This document shows, piece after piece, positions 4,116 to 11,618 of a stretch of 12,006 nt of DNA. Position 1 is the first letter of the stretch, and every line of letters starts with the position of its first letter. The notes under the pieces were generated by a model. That model searched no databases. It worked only from the letters and a program-made list of their open reading frames with translations, and was not told the DNA's origin. The stretch lies in the IMG/VR virus record IMGVR_UViG_2609460346_000011, positions 1-12,006 of that record. The stretch is one strand, 5' to 3'. The position numbers and the translations under genes are program-made. The DNA comes from a virus (lineage: Duplodnaviria > Heunggongvirae > Uroviricota > Caudoviricetes).

Positions 4116-4140
4116 CCCCACTGCAAAAGGTGCAGTGGGG
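4116..4140 (+). terminator. Perfect 10-bp stem hairpin (CCCCACTGCA / AAAGG / TGCAGTGGGG), intrinsic terminator or RBS-sequestering structure
   Basis: Perfect inverted repeat seen directly, preceded by an A-tract and followed by a U-rich stretch. The right arm overlaps the purine-rich SD (GGTGGAG, 4138-4144) of the primase gene. Confidence 0.5.
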
Positions 4141-4153
4141 TGGAGTTTTATAT

Positions 4154-6823
4154 ATGAAATCTGACATCAGAAAAGAGATTATTAACCGTCTTATCCGTGA
4201 TTACAACTTCAAAGAAGAAAATAACTACCTCCGATATGGTGTTTGTCCACAATGTGGAAAGAAAGAGCTGTTTACCAGCCTTGAGAAGCCGTACATCGTA
4301 CACTGCGGGCGTGAAAATAAATGCGGTACAGACCTGCTAACCAAAGAACTTTACCCGGATGTGTTTTCATCATGGTCAGATCGCTATATCAGCACGAAAG
4401 ACGAGCCATATGCAGCGGCGGCAGCTTATCTTCAGGAGGCGCGCAATATTGCTGTGGAGCCACTGAAAGGGGTATTCACTCAGGAGCGATACCAGGACAA
4501 GGAAAGCGGCGAACAGGCCGCTACCGTGCGTTTTACACTGGCTGACGGCGTGTGGTGGGAGCGCATCATAGACCGACCGGAACGCTTCGAACGGAAGGCG
4601 AATTTTTCCGGCAGCTACAAGGGGCTGTGGTGGGCTTATCCGGGAACAGATTTAAGCAGGGCCAAGGAAATCTGGATTTGTGAGGGTGTCTTTGATGCAA
4701 TCAGCCTTAACCAGAATGGCATTGCGGCCGTTTCTGTCATGTCTGCCGTGAATTATCCTGATGAGGCGCTGGAAGAACTGGCAAAGCAGTGCGGAGATAA
4801 TCCCCGTCCGGTTATTGTGTGGGCGCTGGATAACGGGCGTGCAGGTGAGCGTTACGCGAAAAAACATGCAGAACGCAGCGCCGAAGACGGCTGGAGAACG
4901 GCGGCGGCGTTACCGGGTAAAAACAGCAATAAACGCGACTGGAATGATTTACACACCGCCGGAAAGCTGCGTAGCCATGATGTAAAAAGATACCGTTATT
5001 ACGGTGATTTATTACTGGCGAAATCCCCAAGAGATAAGGCGCTGATAATATTTTCCTTTTGTGAGCGGAAGGAATTTCATTTTACCTTTGATAACCGTGT
5101 TTTCTGGTTCAAACTGGACATTGAGCGCTATATGAAGGCTGTTGAGCGTGCCAAGAATGAGCGAAATGTTGATGAGGATGAAGCGCGCAAAATTGCACTT
5201 AAGGAATCCGGTACTGTAAAAGAAATCGCAAACTGTAACCCAGCGCCGCTTTATTACATTCGAAATAATGATACGGATGAAGCCTGGTATTACTTCCGTG
5301 TTACGTTCCCGGATGGTGCTACGGTGAAAAACACCTTTACATCAGGACAATTAACATCCGCATCTGAATTTAAAAAACGCCTGTTGCATGTGGCAAAAGG
5401 CGGTATTTATACCGGAACGACTGCGCACCTTGATGCATTAATAAAAAATGACCTTCCCGCAATAAAAAATGTTATCGGTCAGGATTTTATCGGATACAAC
5501 AAAGAGATTGGCGCGTGGCTGTTTAATGATGTCGCGGTTTGTAATGGTAAAACCTACGAAATCAATGAAGAGGATTATTTTGAAATTGATGGCATAAACG
5601 CAAAACCATTGAATAAAAAACCAATATTGCAGATTAACTATAAAAAACCGGATAAATTTACAATATCCTGGGTGGAAGATCTCTGGCTGGCGTTTGGTGA
5701 AAAGGGAATTATTACCCTGGCCTTCTGGCTGGGTTCGTTGTTCAGCGAACAAATCAGGCAGAAAAACACGTCTTACCCTTTTCTTGAGATTACCGGAGAG
5801 CCTGGAACGGGTAAAACAACGCTGATTGATTTTTGTTGGCGTTTGTGTGGCCGTGACAACTATGAAGGTGTTGATCCAACCAAAGGATCGGAATCAGGCT
5901 GGAAGCGAACTTTTGGACAGGTCGCCGGATTACCTGTTGTTCTGATTGAAGCAGACCGGGGAGACAATGCGCAAAAAAGAGGCGCGTTTGACTTCGATAA
6001 CCTGAAAAGCCTCTATAACGGTGGTGGTATTGGGGTACGTGGCGTTAAAACCAATGATAACGCCACATATGACCCCGTTTTTAAGGGGGCTGTCGTGATT
6101 GCGCAAAATGCCACGGTAAACGCCTCGTCGGCAATTATTGAGCGCCTGGTACGTGTATACACCGATAAAAAACGCCACTCACCAGATAGCCGACTGGCAG
6201 CAAAACGGCTGGAGCTTTACCCCGTTGAGCAGGTATCAGGTTTTATCCATCGGGCAGTAAGTCAGGAACGGACGATTATGGAGACGTTTATGGCACTCTC
6301 GGATTCTGAGACAACCCGCCTTTATAGTTGCGAAAATATTCGTCATCAGCGTATTGCCAAAAATCACGCGCAACTTATCGCGCTGGTCAGGGCGCTGAAA
6401 TGCGTTATTGATATCCCGGATGAATGGCTTGATGCCACATGTCTGGAACTGGAGCGAATGGCAGAGGAACAGGCTAAAGCGGTAATGGATGACTTGCCGG
6501 AAGTGATGGCGTTCTGGGAGACGTTCGACTATCTGGACGGCATCACAGCATACGGCGTAAATCATTTTGGCAAGGGACGGCAGAATGAGTTTGCCATCAG
6601 TATCCCGCAACTTGAGCAGGTTGCCGCCGTTCACCACGTGAAGATCCAAACCAATCCCGAAATGATAAAGCTTCTCAAGGCTGGCCGTTCTCGATCGCTG
6701 ATTGGATACAAGCCCGTCCGTAGCGAGGTATCCAGACAGGCGAACGCCGGGAGGGGAATAGCCGAGGCCAGAGAGAAGGAGGTATTGAAATGCTGGATAT
6801 TTAGTAACAAGGAGGGGGCTTAA
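4154..6823 (+). CDS. DNA primase/helicase-type replication initiator (zinc ribbon + TOPRIM/EGxxD primase + P-loop NTPase), P4 alpha-like in architecture, 889 aa
   Basis: Start taken at the ATG at 4154 (MKSDIRK) rather than the upstream in-frame ATG inside the hairpin. N-terminal Cys cluster CPQCGKK...HCGRENKCG; EGVFDA primase-type motif followed by an acidic DNGRAGE segment; Walker A GEPGTGKTT near residue 550. Confidence 0.85.
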   Translation: MKSDIRKEIINRLIRDYNFKEENNYLRYGVCPQCGKKELFTSLEKPYIVHCGRENKCGTDLLTKELYPDVFSSWSDRYISTKDEPYAAAAAYLQEARNIAVEPLKGVFTQERYQDKESGEQAATVRFTLADGVWWERIIDRPERFERKANFSGSYKGLWWAYPGTDLSRAKEIWICEGVFDAISLNQNGIAAVSVMSAVNYPDEALEELAKQCGDNPRPVIVWALDNGRAGERYAKKHAERSAEDGWRTAAALPGKNSNKRDWNDLHTAGKLRSHDVKRYRYYGDLLLAKSPRDKALIIFSFCERKEFHFTFDNRVFWFKLDIERYMKAVERAKNERNVDEDEARKIALKESGTVKEIANCNPAPLYYIRNNDTDEAWYYFRVTFPDGATVKNTFTSGQLTSASEFKKRLLHVAKGGIYTGTTAHLDALIKNDLPAIKNVIGQDFIGYNKEIGAWLFNDVAVCNGKTYEINEEDYFEIDGINAKPLNKKPILQINYKKPDKFTISWVEDLWLAFGEKGIITLAFWLGSLFSEQIRQKNTSYPFLEITGEPGTGKTTLIDFCWRLCGRDNYEGVDPTKGSESGWKRTFGQVAGLPVVLIEADRGDNAQKRGAFDFDNLKSLYNGGGIGVRGVKTNDNATYDPVFKGAVVIAQNATVNASSAIIERLVRVYTDKKRHSPDSRLAAKRLELYPVEQVSGFIHRAVSQERTIMETFMALSDSETTRLYSCENIRHQRIAKNHAQLIALVRALKCVIDIPDEWLDATCLELERMAEEQAKAVMDDLPEVMAFWETFDYLDGITAYGVNHFGKGRQNEFAISIPQLEQVAAVHHVKIQTNPEMIKLLKAGRSRSLIGYKPVRSEVSRQANAGRGIAEAREKEVLKCWIFSNKEGA

Positions 6824-6825
6824 GT

Positions 6826-7827
6826 ATGTCGATCAGAAAGATGGATGATGGGCGATGGCTGCTCGATATCAGGCCCCAAGGGGCGTACGGCAAACGGATA
6901 CGTAAAATTTTTGTCAGGAAAGGGAGTGCGGAGGTCTTCAAAGAACATATTTTACAGAATTTCCATAACAACCCATGGCTGGCTAAACCTGCTGATCGAC
7001 GGAGATTATCAGAGCTGCTTGATATATGGTGGATGCTTGATGGCCGTAACCAGGCTTACGGTGATACCTACAGGATTCGGATGGAGAAAGTGATTCGTGA
7101 AATGGGAGATCCGCGTGCCAGCCAGATGACGCAAAAATTTATGCTTGAGTATCGGTCAGAGAAATTACAGGCCGGCTTAATGCCATCCAGCATTAATCGT
7201 GACTTGTGCGTTCTGTCTACCATGTTCACGGTGCTGATTGAAGCTGAGGTCTTTCACAACCCGAACCCTGTACGCGGTATACGCAAGCTAAAAATTCAGA
7301 ATACAGAGATGGCCTTTCTTTCTGATGATGAGATTGAGCGGCTTCTTGAGCGACTGGAGGGGGATGCGCGTCGTGTTGCCATTCTGTGTCTTTCTACTGG
7401 TGCCCGATGGAGTGAAGCATCGGAACTACGTGGAGAGCACATCATTGGCAACCGGGTGACGTTCTTTAACACCAAAAACGGAAAATCCCGTTCGGTTCCT
7501 GTGGCTGATTCGGTCGTGCCGCTGATTAAGACCCACCGGACAGGGGTGTTGTATCAGGTTGATTATCTGAAGTTCCGGGAGATCCTTCAGGAGGTGAAGC
7601 CGGATTTACCGAAGGGGCAGGCTACGCATGTCATGCGTCATACATTTGCCACACACTTTATGATGAATGGCGGAAATATTGTTACGTTACAACGAATCCT
7701 GGGGCATGCCACGATTCAACAGACAATGACGTACGCGCATTTTTCTCCCGACTATCTGGCGGATGCCATGAGGTTTAACCCGATAGCTAACATGGCATTC
7801 ACTGAACAAGAAGAGCCAGCAGAGTAA
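6826..7827 (+). CDS. int: Tyrosine integrase, P2 Int-like family, 333 aa
   Basis: Near end-to-end resemblance to the P2 integrase as I recall it (MSIRKMDDGRWLLDIRPQG..GKRIRK...AILCLSTGARWSEA...GQATHVMRHTFATHFMMNGGNIVTLQRILGH...TYAHF). Catalytic Arg, HxxR box and Tyr are present. The ATG lies 2 nt after the primase stop, with the SD (AAGGAGGGGG) inside the primase 3' end. Confidence 0.85.
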   Translation: MSIRKMDDGRWLLDIRPQGAYGKRIRKIFVRKGSAEVFKEHILQNFHNNPWLAKPADRRRLSELLDIWWMLDGRNQAYGDTYRIRMEKVIREMGDPRASQMTQKFMLEYRSEKLQAGLMPSSINRDLCVLSTMFTVLIEAEVFHNPNPVRGIRKLKIQNTEMAFLSDDEIERLLERLEGDARRVAILCLSTGARWSEASELRGEHIIGNRVTFFNTKNGKSRSVPVADSVVPLIKTHRTGVLYQVDYLKFREILQEVKPDLPKGQATHVMRHTFATHFMMNGGNIVTLQRILGHATIQQTMTYAHFSPDYLADAMRFNPIANMAFTEQEEPAE

Positions 7828-7857
7828 CCCGCAGAACGCTACATTCACAGCAAAAGA

Positions 7858-7882
7858 GGTCAGTTTTCCACTGGCCTTTTTT
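7858..7882 (+). terminator. Rho-independent terminator after the P2-type integrase
   Basis: Stem GGUCAG/CUGGCC (one G-U pair) with a 7-nt loop, followed by a run of six T. Confidence 0.6.
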
Positions 7883-8073
7883 GTTGGCCAAAGCCAACGG
7901 TAACAGCAATGCGATGGAGGCCATATTGCAGTGGTGTCGCCATCAATTTTTTTTGCTCTCCCCCCTGGTTATCAGAAAGAGTCAAATAATGGCGAGATAC
8001 ATTTCAATAACAGAGAGTTAATGATAGAGATACAGAATAAGTGAGTTTGATTAACATTTTAAAGGGTCGCGCT

Positions 8074-8397
8074 AAAATCCGGGGGGGGGTGCGGAAACGG
8101 GTTACAAAGGTTACAAACAGAAAAATATATTATATATCAATACATTATAATACATTTAAAAGGTTACAAACGGGTTACAACAGGGTTACATGTAACCTTT
8201 ATGTAGTGGTTACTGTTGGTTACAGGTTAAATTTATAATTAATTGATAATTAATCTGTTTTTGAGAGCTGCAACCTCGTGTAACCTTCTGTAACCTCAAA
8301 AAGGTTACAAGAAATATGTTTTAAAATCATATGACTATAGTGTGTTTTAGGGGGTTGTAACCTTTGTAACCCGTTTCCGCACCCCCTACCGGATTTT
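8074..8397. repeat. Iteron cluster: about 12 copies of GGTTACA/TGTAACC in both orientations around AT-rich DNA, bounded by 43-bp inverted repeats (8074-8116 and 8355-8397, 41/43 identity); putative replication origin
   Basis: Counted directly: forward copies at 8100, 8109, 8162, 8173, 8184, 8219, 8303; reverse copies at 8191, 8279, 8289, 8356, 8365. Includes the palindrome GGTTACATGTAACC at 8184-8197. The interior is AT-rich and there is no convincing coding potential. Confidence 0.6.
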
Positions 8398-8614
8398 GAG
8401 GCAGAGCCCCAAAACAACTGGCCTGACCTCTAACAAAAATGCAACATTAATCATTGATTTTTTGGGGGCTGTCAGTCACGGGGAGTTGCCCTGTTGTTTG
8501 GCAGAAAAATGAAGTATGTACATGCGCGGCGGGGATGGTAAAAAACGTAATACACGCGGCGCAGTTGCCATAAAAAATCTCTCAAAAGCACTCTTTTTGA
8601 CGCTATTGTTCATC

Positions 8615-8644
8615 TGCACAAAAGTGCACAAATTTGCACAATTT
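8615..8644. repeat. Three direct TGCACAA(A/T) repeats phased at exactly 10 bp (8615, 8625, 8635), with a fourth copy at 8707
   Basis: Direct reading of TGCACAAAAG TGCACAAATT TGCACAATTT. Helical-turn phasing suggests a protein binding array or bent DNA. Confidence 0.4.
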
Positions 8645-9004
8645 TTTAGAGTAACTTTTTGCCCATCCGGCCCAGTACTGGCGCGCCCGGAGGGCGATTT
8701 CGTGCGTGCACAAAAAACGGTGAGTTTTTCGCGCGCAGGTGACGGGGGAACAGCACGCGTTTCAGGGGGTAAATTACATTTTCGCTAAAGGCTGCGGGAA
8801 TGCCCCGACCGGGTTAGTTTTATCGCCAGCCAGAGCCGTTCTTACGGCAAGAGAGAACTGATACGGGGAATGTGACGAGTGAGCATGGGAACGGCGCGCC
8901 CGTGCGTAATACGCGGCGACTGCTGCGGGTTTATTTGATACAGCCAGAGGGGGGCGGCAGAAGATATAATAGGTTAAATTTCACACCAGTAAGAGGAGCG
9001 TGAT

Positions 9005-9187
9005 ATGTCTTTCCCTTGCCCGGCCTGTGGCGCTTCAGCCCGCACCCGTGGTCGTTCGTTGGAAGAACACGAACAAAACATCTACAGAACGTATTACCAG
9101 TGCAATAATATTGAGTGTGGGGCTTGTTTTTGTACGCTTGAGTCGTTTGTACGCATTACTAAGCGCAGGAAGTCGAAAACTTCATAG
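9005..9187 (+). CDS. ogr: Ogr/Delta-family zinc-finger late-gene transcriptional activator, 60 aa
   Basis: SD AAGAGGAG upstream. CPAC...(x)...YQCNNIECGACFCTLESF matches the Ogr/Delta C-x2-C / C-x4-C zinc-finger signature and the FxTxES motif of P2 Ogr as recalled. Confidence 0.85.
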   Translation: MSFPCPACGASARTRGRSLEEHEQNIYRTYYQCNNIECGACFCTLESFVRITKRRKSKTS

Positions 9188-9237
9188 TGATTTGTATAAC
9201 ACAGCCAGCGAGTGTGACCGGCTGCGTTATTTCTGTA

Positions 9238-9471
9238 TTACGTCGTGTGGTTCTGGTCATTTGCCCAGGCCCACACATCCCCCGCTACATTGCGCCCGTT
9301 GCAGTCTTCTTCCTGCGTTTCCCCGGCCTTAATTCCCTGACTGATAAACATTCTGACGCACTGGGAGTAGTTCATCTCTCTGTCCTGACATATCTGATTT
9401 ATTTTATGGTCGATTTCGTGCGGGATACGAATACAGCGTAATACGCATCGCATTTTCTTTTGTTTTTTCAT
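9238..9471 (-). CDS. Small hypothetical protein (77 aa) with a ribbon-helix-helix-like N-terminus; possible DNA-binding regulator
   Basis: Minus-strand ATG at 9471 preceded by AGGGAGG at seven nt spacing. The N-terminus MKKQKKMRCVLRCIRIPHEIDHKINQICQDREMNYSQCVRMFI has a strand-helix-helix pattern reminiscent of Arc/CopG-type proteins. The overlapping + strand ORFs look like junk. Family assignment is tentative. Confidence 0.4.
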   Translation of the reverse strand: MKKQKKMRCVLRCIRIPHEIDHKINQICQDREMNYSQCVRMFISQGIKAGETQEEDCNGRNVAGDVWAWANDQNHTT

Positions 9472-9626
9472 AGTGTTGCCTCCCTGATTGTTTATGCCGG
9501 GATTTAACACCCGCGATACAAGAAAGCGTAATACAACAGTATTGTGAGCGTATTACGAGAACAAAATCGGCTGGAATGTATTACGCAATATGGAAAAAAT
9601 CGGCGTAAGTAAAAAAATGTATTACA
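9436..9626. promoter_or_regulatory. Divergent intergenic/promoter region with five copies of GCGTAATAC/GTATTACGC in both orientations
   Basis: Motif at 9436, 9526, 9549 (inverted), 9577 (inverted) and 9618 (partial). Related longer copies (CGTAATACRCGCGG) occur at about 8549, 8899 and inside the capsid gene at about 11177. Confidence 0.35.
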
Positions 9627-9636
9627 GGAGCAAATA

Positions 9637-10347
9637 ATGGATATAACTCAGGCAAGCGCCGAACATCAGGTATGTAAAGCACAGTTTGATACAGCCATGG
9701 CAAAACTCAGTGAACAGGAATCATTAATCACCAATCTGGAAGCAACTATCGAACAGACGAAAGGGGAGCTGGAATCTCTCGATCGTGACTGGCAGAACTC
9801 AATCCTGTCTGCGCTGGGCGTAAAAACGGAAGCCTCCGCGAAATTATCCATTCAGGCGGGTGTGGCGCGAGAAAATCTTGAGCGTCTGCGGGTGCTGCAT
9901 GATGAGGCGCGCATCAGGCTACTGGAGTGTCGTTATAACGCGGCAGAGGCTGGTTGTGCTTACGAAAGCATTGATAATAAGTTGCGGGCAGAGATATTTG
10001 CAAAAGCACTTCCCGAACTGATTAACGAGCTGACCCCTGCTCTGTTATTGATTCGTGGTTTATGTGAGCTGCTTGGCCAGCCGCTGTATAACGCAGAAAA
10101 GAAAATATGCGAAACACTGAAAGCGACAGATACTGCTGAAAGTGTCGGGATGATTCGCGGCCGGATTAACGATACCGAAAGCGACACCTCCAGCCCGCTG
10201 CGTTATTGCCCGGAGAAACTCCCGGATTCGGTAAGCCGCGCAATCAGGAACGCCCCTTCACCTGTACAATGGAGCGCGGCGCGACAGAATCCAGAAAAAA
10301 TGCGCGACCTTGCGGAGGGCAGAGAACTCTGCCGGGGGTGGCAGTAA
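9637..10347 (+). CDS. Coiled-coil alpha-helical protein, 236 aa; putative capsid scaffold or size-determination-like (Sid/Psu/GpO-like) protein
   Basis: SD AGGAG seven nt upstream. The sequence is rich in Ala/Leu/Glu heptad-like segments. It sits immediately upstream of, and is translationally coupled to, the capsid gene (TAATG overlap at 10345-10349). The coding call is reasonably safe; the function is inferred from position and composition only. Confidence 0.5.
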   Translation: MDITQASAEHQVCKAQFDTAMAKLSEQESLITNLEATIEQTKGELESLDRDWQNSILSALGVKTEASAKLSIQAGVARENLERLRVLHDEARIRLLECRYNAAEAGCAYESIDNKLRAEIFAKALPELINELTPALLLIRGLCELLGQPLYNAEKKICETLKATDTAESVGMIRGRINDTESDTSSPLRYCPEKLPDSVSRAIRNAPSPVQWSAARQNPEKMRDLAEGRELCRGWQ

Positions 10348-11618
10348 TGGGCGGTCTGAATACTCCACATTTGCACGGCGCTGATATAGTGAGCCGACTC
10401 AGGGGATTAATGTCCCGGAATCGCCTGAAAGCAAACACAGCAAGCATAAGCGATGAGACGCGTCGCGCGCTGGACAATGAATATCAAAAACTGGAGCGTG
10501 AGCTTGAGCTTCACACCCTGCATACTGCAAGCGGTGGGGGTAATAACGACGGCATTGAGCGTTATAATTGCACTGCTGATTCTGTTGTATCACAACGAAA
10601 TCAACAGGCTCAGATGGTTTTCAATTGCGCTATCGAGTCGATAACCGGAAAGCATCCGAAGGATTTGCACTTTTCTGGTGACACTGCGCGCTATTCGTCA
10701 GAAGTTGAACCCGTTCCCCGCCAGAGTGCAACGCTTGCCAGTGGATGGCAGGCAAATTTCCTTGCTGAAATAACTCCCGTGCCTGTTACGGATATATCAG
10801 GTCGGGTTGTGCTGGTAGACGCTTCGGGGCCGTTGGCACGTACATCGCCACCTCACGAGCGCCGTTCGCCACTACAGGCGCATTCACTGGTTTCAAGGGG
10901 CTACCGCTGCGAGCAGGTTAATTTTGATTTTGCGCTGAACTACGACAATGTTGATGCTCACACATCCGCAAACGGTCTTGAAGGAAGCGCACGGGCTGCT
11001 TTTGAACGCCGGAAATGGCTGGATTTGATTCAGATTGGTTTTAACGGTACGCACTATGCCGATACATCAGATCCCGGAACATATCCGGGGCGTGATGATT
11101 GCGGCGTGGGCTGGTTGCAGAAGTTTCGAAATGAAGCGGCGGGAAGGGTTATCAGCGGCCTTTCTGTTTCATCACCGAAAAGTAATACACGCGGTACACA
11201 CCATACGATAGATGCGCTCGTTCTGGATGCCTGGCAATCCATGATTGATGAACAGTGGCAGGAAGGCATTGTGGCCGTATGCAGTCACAATACGCTGGTC
11301 CGTAAGCAATGGCCTTTGATAAACCGTCTTGATCCATCGCAGATGAATCAGGAAATTTTGCTTAACGAGGAAATCATTAAAAATCCCGTTCTGGGGAATC
11401 TCCCGGCTGTGACCGTTCCATTTTTCCCGGACAATGCTGTATTGATCACACCTCTTGCCAATCTGTGTCTGTACTGGCAGCGTGGTTCCGTTCGTGGCCT
11501 GGTAAAAAACGAGCCTCAGTATAATCGCCTCGCGTTCTATGAGTCCTGTAACCTTGACTGGGTGGTGGGGCAATATGAGGCAGGGTGCTTACTGGATGGG
11601 ATTGACTGGAAAGAATAG
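10347..11618 (+). CDS. Major capsid protein, P2 GpN-like family, 424 aa from the ATG at 10347 (alternative internal start at 10614)
   Basis: Extended motif agreement with P2 GpN as I recall it: CEQVNFDF, GFNGTHYADTSD, GVGWLQKFRNEAAGRV, IDALVLDA, GNLPAVTVPFFPDNAVLITPLANL, YESCNLDWVVGQYEAGCLLDGI. SD-like GGGGGTGG lies upstream of the 10347 ATG. About 89 residues precede the region that aligns with the GpN N-terminus. Confidence 0.8.
   Translation: MGGLNTPHLHGADIVSRLRGLMSRNRLKANTASISDETRRALDNEYQKLERELELHTLHTASGGGNNDGIERYNCTADSVVSQRNQQAQMVFNCAIESITGKHPKDLHFSGDTARYSSEVEPVPRQSATLASGWQANFLAEITPVPVTDISGRVVLVDASGPLARTSPPHERRSPLQAHSLVSRGYRCEQVNFDFALNYDNVDAHTSANGLEGSARAAFERRKWLDLIQIGFNGTHYADTSDPGTYPGRDDCGVGWLQKFRNEAAGRVISGLSVSSPKSNTRGTHHTIDALVLDAWQSMIDEQWQEGIVAVCSHNTLVRKQWPLINRLDPSQMNQEILLNEEIIKNPVLGNLPAVTVPFFPDNAVLITPLANLCLYWQRGSVRGLVKNEPQYNRLAFYESCNLDWVVGQYEAGCLLDGIDWKE

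Follow-up and report, generated by a model that had tools for sequence, protein, structure and literature searches.

The DNA described here, to which we refer as the window, is a stretch of 12,006 nucleotides from an IMG/VR virus record (IMGVR_UViG_2609460346_000011), and our subject is a repeat element at positions 8074-8397 within it that is a candidate origin of replication. The window is 99.6% identical to an island located at tRNA-Arg in the chromosome of E. coli (L001; L numbers denote the loci that were compared). The island encodes a P4-type integrase, AlpA, an Icd-like gene, a Toprim protein, a derepression protein and a P2-type integrase, and its right part consists of approximately 1.2 kb without convincing genes, ogr/delta, a 236-amino acid protein, a P2-family major capsid protein and MazEF. 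Relatives at other chromosomal sites have another outer integrase and the same internal order. The window is a P2-dependent satellite island of E. coli of about 12 kb. It is not a canonical P4, as its primase is of the phrog_1139 type found in P2-like phages and a capsid gene takes the place of sid/psu.

The element is bounded by two arms of 43 nucleotides that are complementary at 41 of 43 positions (95%) and enclose 238 nucleotides; in 100 shuffles of the region 7900-8600, the longest inverted match with at most two mismatches had a mean of 14.9 and a maximum of 23. GGTTACA occurs 15 times in the window, whereas 1.36 ± 1.17 copies are expected in 12 kb (none of 200 shuffles reached 15), and 12 exact copies are located within 272 bp of non-coding DNA (8100-8371). 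The variant GGTTACT represents a thirteenth copy, and a fourteenth position is occupied by a decayed heptamer where close relatives have TGTAACC. These iterons fall into five groups (Table 1), with start-to-start spacings within blocks of 9, 11, 11, 7, 17, 10, 10, 14 and 9 nucleotides (that is, 7-17 and mostly 9-11), and the GC content falls to 10-15% in two of the segments between blocks (8120-8159 and 8220-8259). An earlier note, made from the letters of the window, had called attention to about 12 copies of GGTTACA in both orientations, to nearly perfect 43-bp inverted repeats enclosing the outer iteron pairs and to AT-rich DNA among the iterons, and all three observations are borne out. 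No other GGTTACA-type cluster is present in the island, and the only two perfect matches in the window to the consensus for integration host factor (IHF), WATCAANNNNTTR, are both inside the element.

Table 1. Parts of the repeat element and the two genes that precede it
Feature	Coordinates	Strand	Description
Primase-helicase, proposed trans-acting initiator	4130-6823	+	RefSeq start 4154, longest open reading frame from 4130; 889/897 amino acids
P2-type tyrosine integrase cassette	6826-7827	+	333 amino acids; Pfam Int_N and Phage_integrase; neighbor, not part of the proposed origin
Left terminal arm	8074-8116	+	Inverted-repeat arm; A/T lead, G9 run, TGCGGAAACG box, then two direct iterons
Left-arm iterons	8100-8106, 8109-8115	+	Direct pair, 9-nt spacing
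AT-rich segment 1	8117-8161	.	~10% GC; candidate unwinding region; IHF-consensus match TATCAATACATTA at 8135-8147
Central iteron block	8162-8224	+	Direct copies at 8162, 8173 and 8184, 11-nt phasing; pattern +++-++ in 25 loci
Central palindrome GGTTACATGTAACC			Part of central block; completed by inverted iteron at 8191-8197
Central block end		+	GGTTACT at 8208, GGTTACA at 8218
AT-rich segment 2	8225-8268	.	~15% GC; invariant ATTGAT at 8242-8247 within minus-strand IHF-consensus match at 8236-8248
Inverted iteron block	8269-8309	-	Decayed TGCAACC at 8269-8275; TGTAACC at 8279-8285 and 8289-8295; direct GGTTACA at 8303-8309; pattern ---+
AT-rich segment 3	8310-8354	.	Invariant block AAATCAT at 8324-8330 (alignment A1)
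Right terminal arm	8355-8397	-	Inverted-repeat arm; inverted iterons at 8356-8362 and 8365-8371, then CGTTTCCGCA box and C-run; varies in concert with left arm

Searches of the element for features of other kinds gave negative results. DnaA boxes were not found inside it, Rfam returned no family, a promoter and terminator scan gave no signal above background, a DNA search against a phage collection produced no match, and the annotation of relatives places no gene within it. The single-strand fold of the element has a z score of -12.5, which is a trivial result of the inverted repeat, and we do not take it as evidence for a structured nucleic acid.

The element is a conserved module of about 300 bp that is common to some P2-like phages and their satellites. 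We compared 25 loci from six genera (Escherichia, Yersinia, Salmonella, Pectobacterium, Providencia and Morganella), the distant contexts having been taken from a protein search combined with contig look-ups (a contig scan with a single primase sequence gave one locus). All 25 exhibited the same strand pattern of iterons, ++ +++-++ ---+ --, in a single orientation relative to the primase gene. Among complete E. coli genomes, at least 67 of 5,426 contain the element.

What the module-bearing loci have in common is the primase-helicase. It is the sole protein of the window with a homolog in nine of nine distant module-bearing loci (tblastn table), and every examined locus encoding this primase family at 50% identity or greater contains the module. 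In particular, each of six primase homologs of 52-76% identity is followed by 9-13 GTTACA-type repeats in the same layout. The module lies directly 3' of the primase gene in L007 and in L031-L034, whereas a 1-kb integrase cassette intervenes in the window, as does an inner P2-type integrase in a Yersinia satellite (L030). The order in L007 (primase, module, integrase) differs from that of the window, and hence the cassette can be accommodated on either side of the module. Two Salmonella satellites (L031 and L032) and a Pectobacterium satellite (L033) have no integrase near the module, and P2-like prophages of Providencia (L034) and Morganella (L035) keep their own int/cox at the end of the prophage, 3 kb farther upstream. 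Phage ESSI2 has no GTTACA cluster; k-mer scanning revealed the same architecture built from (C)RTCACA repeats (L005:148-445), at a distance of 1.4 kb from the true attP of the phage, a separate locus with TGTGGAC arms that adjoins int. By contrast with these loci, GC-rich relatives of the primase with 42-47% identity (loci L023-L028, among them phiCTX, L026, RSY1, L027, and a Halomonas phage) lack a comparable cluster of iterons up to 4 kb from the gene, and their origins may be elsewhere or too diverged for k-mer enrichment. We also note that the Providencia prophage has a complete CGTTACA module (L034 positions 8008-8310) between two partial GGTTACA/TGTAACC modules (L034 positions 7770-7900 and 8405-8540), so that two iteron flavors stand side by side in a triple arrangement that recalls the duplicated crr of P4.

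The pattern of sequence constraint singles out the iterons. In nine aligned copies that are 69-99% identical, 67 of 91 heptamer columns are invariant, as against 68 of 233 columns elsewhere (p = 5e-13). The AT-rich spacers drift freely among these copies, and that of AT-rich segment 1 diverges freely between relatives. The G-run/CGGAAA box, ATTGAT and AAATCAT are invariant blocks that lie outside the iterons; at the position equivalent to the last of these, L031, L034, L035 and ESSI2 have TATCAAT or AAATCAT-like blocks. The box and iterons of the left arm are kept in all relatives, and the box varies in concert with the right arm. The left and right arms read GCGGAAACG and CGTTTCCGC in the window, GCGCAAAGCG and CGCTTTGCGC in L003, TTCGGAAACG and CGTTTCCGAA in L007 and L032, and CATCGGGAT and ATCCCGATG in L031.

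The iterons themselves also change in concert. Close relatives exhibit three flavors, RGGTTACA, CGGTTACA (with C in 12 of 14 copies) and RGGTCACA, and CGGTTACA, the L003 type, is accompanied by lineage B of the primase C-terminus in nine of nine loci, across two unrelated integrase types. Integrase type 1, meanwhile, occurs with all three flavors. In L019, 13 iterons have undergone a T-to-C change (giving GGTCACA), yet the integrase is still 96% identical, and its N-domain is 95% identical to that of the window. Given that the integrase gene is located between the 3' end of the primase gene and the iterons, mere linkage would predict that the integrase tracks the iterons at least as closely as the primase does. 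We have used only the association at the level of lineages, as the C-terminal lineages, of which the identity matrix reveals three, are at roughly equal distances from one another. A count of private residues, in which the changes in L019 appeared to be concentrated in the primase C-terminus, was dropped because it is unfair to clades with several members.

From the N-terminus, the primase-helicase comprises a Cys4 zinc ribbon, a Toprim domain, a Walker A P-loop (GEPGTGKT), a C-terminal helical domain and a terminal domain (approximately residues 800-897) with the elements alpha-beta-alpha-alpha-beta-beta; the zinc ribbon, the Toprim domain and the Walker A motif were seen in an alignment of 36 homologs (A2). 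The protein matches Pfam Toprim_2/3 and, over its full length, phrog_1139; it is 41-51% identical to the primases of the P2-like phages phiCTX, RSY1 and ESSI2, and a protein search yielded 1,623 homologs at E <= 1e-20, phiCTX-type phages among them. An AlphaFold model of the C-terminal 198 residues (mean pLDDT, a per-residue confidence score, of 93.8) has the helical domain followed by the alpha-beta-alpha-alpha-beta-beta unit, whose elements, as modeled, come in a winged-helix-like order. The longest structural alignments of the modeled C-terminal part were to the initiator-helicases SaPIbov Rep and SCCmec Cch. Pfam and Protein Data Bank (PDB) sequence searches detected no sequence homology to the Pri/Rep proteins of phage-inducible chromosomal islands (PICIs). 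Similarity to P4 alpha is confined to motifs (Toprim, Walker A and zinc ribbon): BLASTP aligned only the Toprim (E = 5e-4; 32% identity over 100 residues) and Walker A segments, and the D5_N and Pox_D5 domains that Pfam recognizes in alpha are absent from the window primase (DUF5906 being below threshold at E = 0.0097).

Taken together, the comparative evidence suggests, with a probability that we put at roughly 0.8, that the element is the iteron-type replication origin (oriV) of the island's phiCTX/ESSI2-type primase-helicase. The earlier note had proposed an origin for the adjacent primase-helicase, as in P4 ori/crr. The iteron origin is what the comparison of loci favors, but the kinship with P4 alpha does not extend beyond motifs and the adjacency is not strict, as an integrase cassette lies in between. 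In the mechanism that we envision, the winged-helix-like domain at the C-terminus of the initiator would bind the 7-8-bp iterons (RGGTTACA), which are arranged in helically phased groups 9-11 bp apart and in both orientations. The outer opposed iteron pairs and the central palindromic pair would bracket the three AT-rich stretches, where two IHF-like sites may help to bend the DNA. Initiator oligomers would then melt AT-rich DNA and assemble as outward-facing helicase rings, and the Toprim primase domain would lay the first primers, giving rise to theta-type and probably bidirectional replication of the excised satellite.

Several observations weigh against the assignment as an origin. The module of ESSI2 is 4.5 kb from the primase gene, and hence adjacency of primase and module is not universal. 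All E. coli and Yersinia satellites have an integrase gene directly next to the module, whether before or after it. Neither the conserved CGGAAACG box nor the concerted change of the arms is accounted for by simple iteron binding. The covariation, too, is suggestive but not clean: L011 pairs an L019-like primase C-terminus with GGTTACA, and Thr885, the sole residue that is exclusive to both TCACA-type primases, does no better than control pairs. Finally, the element could be a crr-like accessory cis site rather than the point of initiation.

This last alternative is the one that survives best, although we regard it as unlikely. The element would then be an array that is bound by the same initiator and that acts as a crr-like enhancer, as a copy-number or incompatibility (handcuffing) locus or as a decoy that titrates the initiator against related helpers. 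P4 does require a crr, located directly 3' of alpha, in addition to a separate ori; the Providencia prophage has one full and two partial modules; and the module is common to satellites and P2-like phages. As against this, the element is the sole iteron cluster in the island, most elements have a single module, and the three strongly AT-rich segments are suited to melting.

A still less probable view is that the element is an attP-like or complex recombination site of the adjoining P2-type integrase, its heptamers being arm sites that the N-domain binds when the enzyme integrates, resolves multimers or acts on the helper. The attP sites of P2, ESSI2 and the 186 family do resemble the element superficially, in that both have inverted paired heptamers, two of which form a palindrome, together with IHF sites in AT-rich DNA and a P2-type int nearby (PMC3448106). 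Indeed, attP of ESSI2 has paired inverted heptamers on two arms with a pair spacing of 9-11 nucleotides, AT-rich/IHF DNA and an XXXXACATGTXXXX palindrome (half-sites GTCCACA and TGTGGAC), and the integrase that abuts the module has its full catalytic residues. However, attP in P2-like phages is directly 3' of int, has four to six arm sites of the sequence tgTGGaCa and a core shared with attB, and is split on integration, whereas the module has 14 sites and no core and is found alongside a distinct, true attP in ESSI2, L034 and L035, in which int and attP are kept away from it. An identical architecture is present without a nearby integrase in L031-L033, and in 66 of 67 E. coli genomes the island is integrated with the element uninterrupted. 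Nor does the module follow the integrase. The consensus arm site is tgTGGaCa for P2-type and tgccGCCActt for 186-type integrases, and the N-domain discriminator residues are Y/W, D/E and R/Y (PMC3448106). N-domains of at least five types that are 40-100% identical, with either Y-D-R (the canonical P2 arm signature; L010 and L016) or W-D-R, stand beside the same GGTTACA cluster, and the heptamer of L019 is changed despite a nearly identical N-domain. GTCCAYA occurs twice in the window (2.2 copies expected), in neither case near the element, and is clustered in no island. The prophage with the closest integrase (Int 87% identical) has GTCCAT repeats at the 3' end of int, GGTTACA is missing from its att arm, its att region shares nothing with the element beyond random 7-8-mers, and no core-like segment covaries with integrase type.

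Integrase swapping as a stand-alone argument against attP is weaker than it looks, as N-domains of the P2 family that are about 60% identical share GTCCAYA arm sites (PMC3448106). The attP alternative was rejected only once both the integrase-free modules and the separate attP of ESSI2 had been found.

An invertible switch, which the earlier note had offered together with a complex recombination site, is very improbable. In this scheme the segment would be flipped between the 43-bp inverted repeats by the adjacent recombinase, in the manner of fimS, and would thereby switch the downstream late genes on and off. Like fimS, the element has long inverted repeats around a segment of about 240 bp (about 300 bp in fimS switches) that adjoins a tyrosine recombinase gene. 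The asymmetric strand pattern allows its orientation to be read directly, however, and none of the 25 loci departs from the common polarity; likewise, in a search with 701 bp, 53 of 57 E. coli genomes gave a single collinear alignment that ran across the inner segment and both flanks. Iterons make up the inverted repeats, no promoter signal above background is present inside, and the arrays are kept in L031-L033, where there is no recombinase. Both recombinase proposals of the earlier note are thus unsupported, given the single orientation of the module, the integrase-free modules, iteron flavors that are uncoupled from the integrase type and tgTGGaCa arm sites that do not cluster in these islands.

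Equally remote is a packaging (cos/pac) region recognized by the helper terminase: although a satellite needs a cos site and the module lies within the same 1.2-kb non-coding stretch, a separate cos-like block is present downstream (TGCACAA repeats at 8615-8641 and 8707-8713, and GGTGACGGGGGAACAGCAC at 8738-8756), and the module of ESSI2 is far from the portal and terminase genes. The block was placed by homology with L008, in which GGCGAGGCGGGGGAACAAG (6599) is the positional homolog of GGTGACGGGGGAACAGCAC, and a similar sequence is found near the portal gene of L034 (12299). A cos sequence of P2 has no match in the window within three mismatches. The candidate cos/packaging region extends from 8600 to 8760, with TGCACAA at 8615, 8625, 8635 and 8707, and is overlapped by a RefSeq 90-amino acid "hypothetical protein" (8516-8788) that has no family match and may not be a gene.

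How does the proposed origin compare with known systems? One parallel is P4. According to its record, crr consists of two repeats of 120 bp; either repeat contains five type-1 iterons of 8 bp, which occur in both orientations and begin with a pair spaced by 9 nucleotides. The crr is directly 3' of alpha, between alpha and attP/int, and ori, with six type-1 iterons, is 4.5 kb away. Shared with P4 are the order of the initiator (zinc ribbon, Toprim primase, P-loop NTPase and C-terminal domain), iterons of 7-8 bp in both orientations with 9-11-bp phasing around AT-rich DNA, a cis element that directly follows the replication gene and adjoins the integrase/att region, and a host satellite that depends on P2 and carries AlpA, an Icd-like gene, a derepression protein and ogr/delta. 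Unlike P4, with its 8-bp type-1 repeat and its division into ori and crr, the window has the iteron GGTTACA in one module of about 320 bp bounded by a 43-bp inverted repeat, and its primase family also occurs in bona fide P2-like phages (phiCTX, RSY1 and ESSI2).

Another parallel is with the origins of PICIs and Staphylococcus aureus pathogenicity islands (SaPIs), in which iteron sets flank an AT-rich putative melting region directly 3' of pri-rep; a rep-ori fragment drives plasmid replication for EcCICFT073 and for SaPIs (PMC6092414). The element similarly has iterons flanking AT-rich DNA 3' of a replication gene, and the longest structural alignments of the C-terminal part of its protein are to the SaPIbov and SCCmec enzymes. 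The window differs in that sequence homology is not detectable, in that its iterons form five groups, with an unvarying strand pattern and inverted repeats at the ends, rather than two sets around one AT-rich region, and in that primase and helicase are fused in one protein of about 890 amino acids from a phage-derived family. The element appears to work like the origins of P4 and the PICIs, but by homology it is not a member of the P4 class and probably not of the PICI class either.

More distant likenesses may also be drawn. The origins of SV40 large T and papillomavirus E1 and those of the iteron plasmids R6K and pSC101 have arrays of short initiator sites in inverted orientation beside AT-rich DNA. 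Large T and E1 are, like the proposed initiator, themselves replicative helicases, and R6K and pSC101 use bending assisted by IHF. No homology to these systems is expected, the number and arrangement of sites are different in all of them, and the window module has no DnaA boxes inside. The kind of element is well known. In contrast, we found no description of this origin in the literature on the iteron sequence, on the origins of phiCTX-type primases or on P4-like satellites, and the family appears to be undescribed.

The window contains an additional GGTTACA-containing inverted repeat at 2349-2365, to which the earlier note had also drawn attention. It reads CCGGTTACATTAACCGG and is one base short of the palindrome at the center of the origin. 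The repeat is present as described, but its relation to the element does not hold up: CCGGTTACATTAACCGG is found only in relatives that share the left-hand module of the window (L001, L016 and L017), independently of iteron flavor. It goes with one variant of the left-hand module, and relatives with the same primase and iterons lack it, and so we place it outside the origin system and reject it as an additional operator for the initiator. It probably belongs to the immunity-like region, as an operator or RNA stem.

We turn to the neighboring genes. The inner integrase, which is 87% identical to Int of P2-like prophages and 55% identical to P2 Int, has intact catalytic residues. It represents an interchangeable cassette of which there are at least five types (window, L010, L011, L016, L007, L008 and L030), with N-domains 40-100% and core-binding domains 37-100% identical, catalytic residues intact in all and an island-specific C-terminal tail, FNPVAN...EKEPAE, in common. 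Relative to the integrase of a P2-like prophage at the dmsA site, that of the window is about 90% identical in the core-binding and catalytic domains and 60% identical in the arm-binding domain. The inner integrase, which the Salmonella and Pectobacterium satellites lack, has no P2-type arm sites beside it and may act on att sites of the helper.

The island has no capsid-size factors of the Sid/Psu type. The P2-family major capsid gene (10347-11618; Pfam Phage_cap_P2, E = 1e-71) is preceded by the gene for the 236-amino acid protein (the two spanning 9637-11618) and lies at the opposite end of the island in Yersinia and Salmonella relatives. We found no description of this capsid-encoding class in the surveys of P4-like satellites that we read. 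The sequence (C)GTAATAC(G) occurs in nine copies in both orientations (8547, 8906, 9091, 9235, 9438, 9528, 9550, 9578 and 9619); the cluster (8547-9625) is densest directly upstream of the gene at 9637, is kept in many relatives and may serve the late (ogr/delta-capsid) region as an array of operator or activator sites. At the other end of the island, the gene for the outer integrase is followed at 1310-1335 by GGCGTGGACAATATGTGGACACGCC and a T-run, a terminator-like arrangement with two GTGGACA repeats that resemble P2-type arm sites, and then by an AT-rich stretch with five copies of AAAATCA (region 1226-1580). This region is not kept in relatives with the same inner but a different outer integrase.

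The assignment gives a function to a conspicuous and unannotated element of E. coli, of related satellites and of P2-like prophages in at least five other genera, and it sets the origin apart from the integrase cassette beside it. It would also define a probable origin for a primase-helicase family of 1,623 homologs. The natural iteron variants, paired as they are with distinct primase C-termini, offer a ready system for dissecting origin specificity; a pair of primase and ori, of about 3 kb, would make a compact inducible replicon; and origin flavor could serve as a typing marker for capsid-encoding P2 satellites. Finally, and more speculatively, it is conceivable that the module is a replication "currency" shared by a subgroup of P2-like helpers and their satellites, with the flavors (RGGTTACA, CGGTTACA, GGTCACA, CGTTACA and RTCACA) representing specificity or incompatibility groups that arose from conflict at the level of replication and with the inner integrase acting in trans on att of the helper rather than of the satellite. 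If so, helper machinery could fire the origin of the satellite, or the initiator of the satellite could titrate or hijack replication of the helper, and the shift in L019 toward the ESSI2-like TCACA iteron would be such a move.

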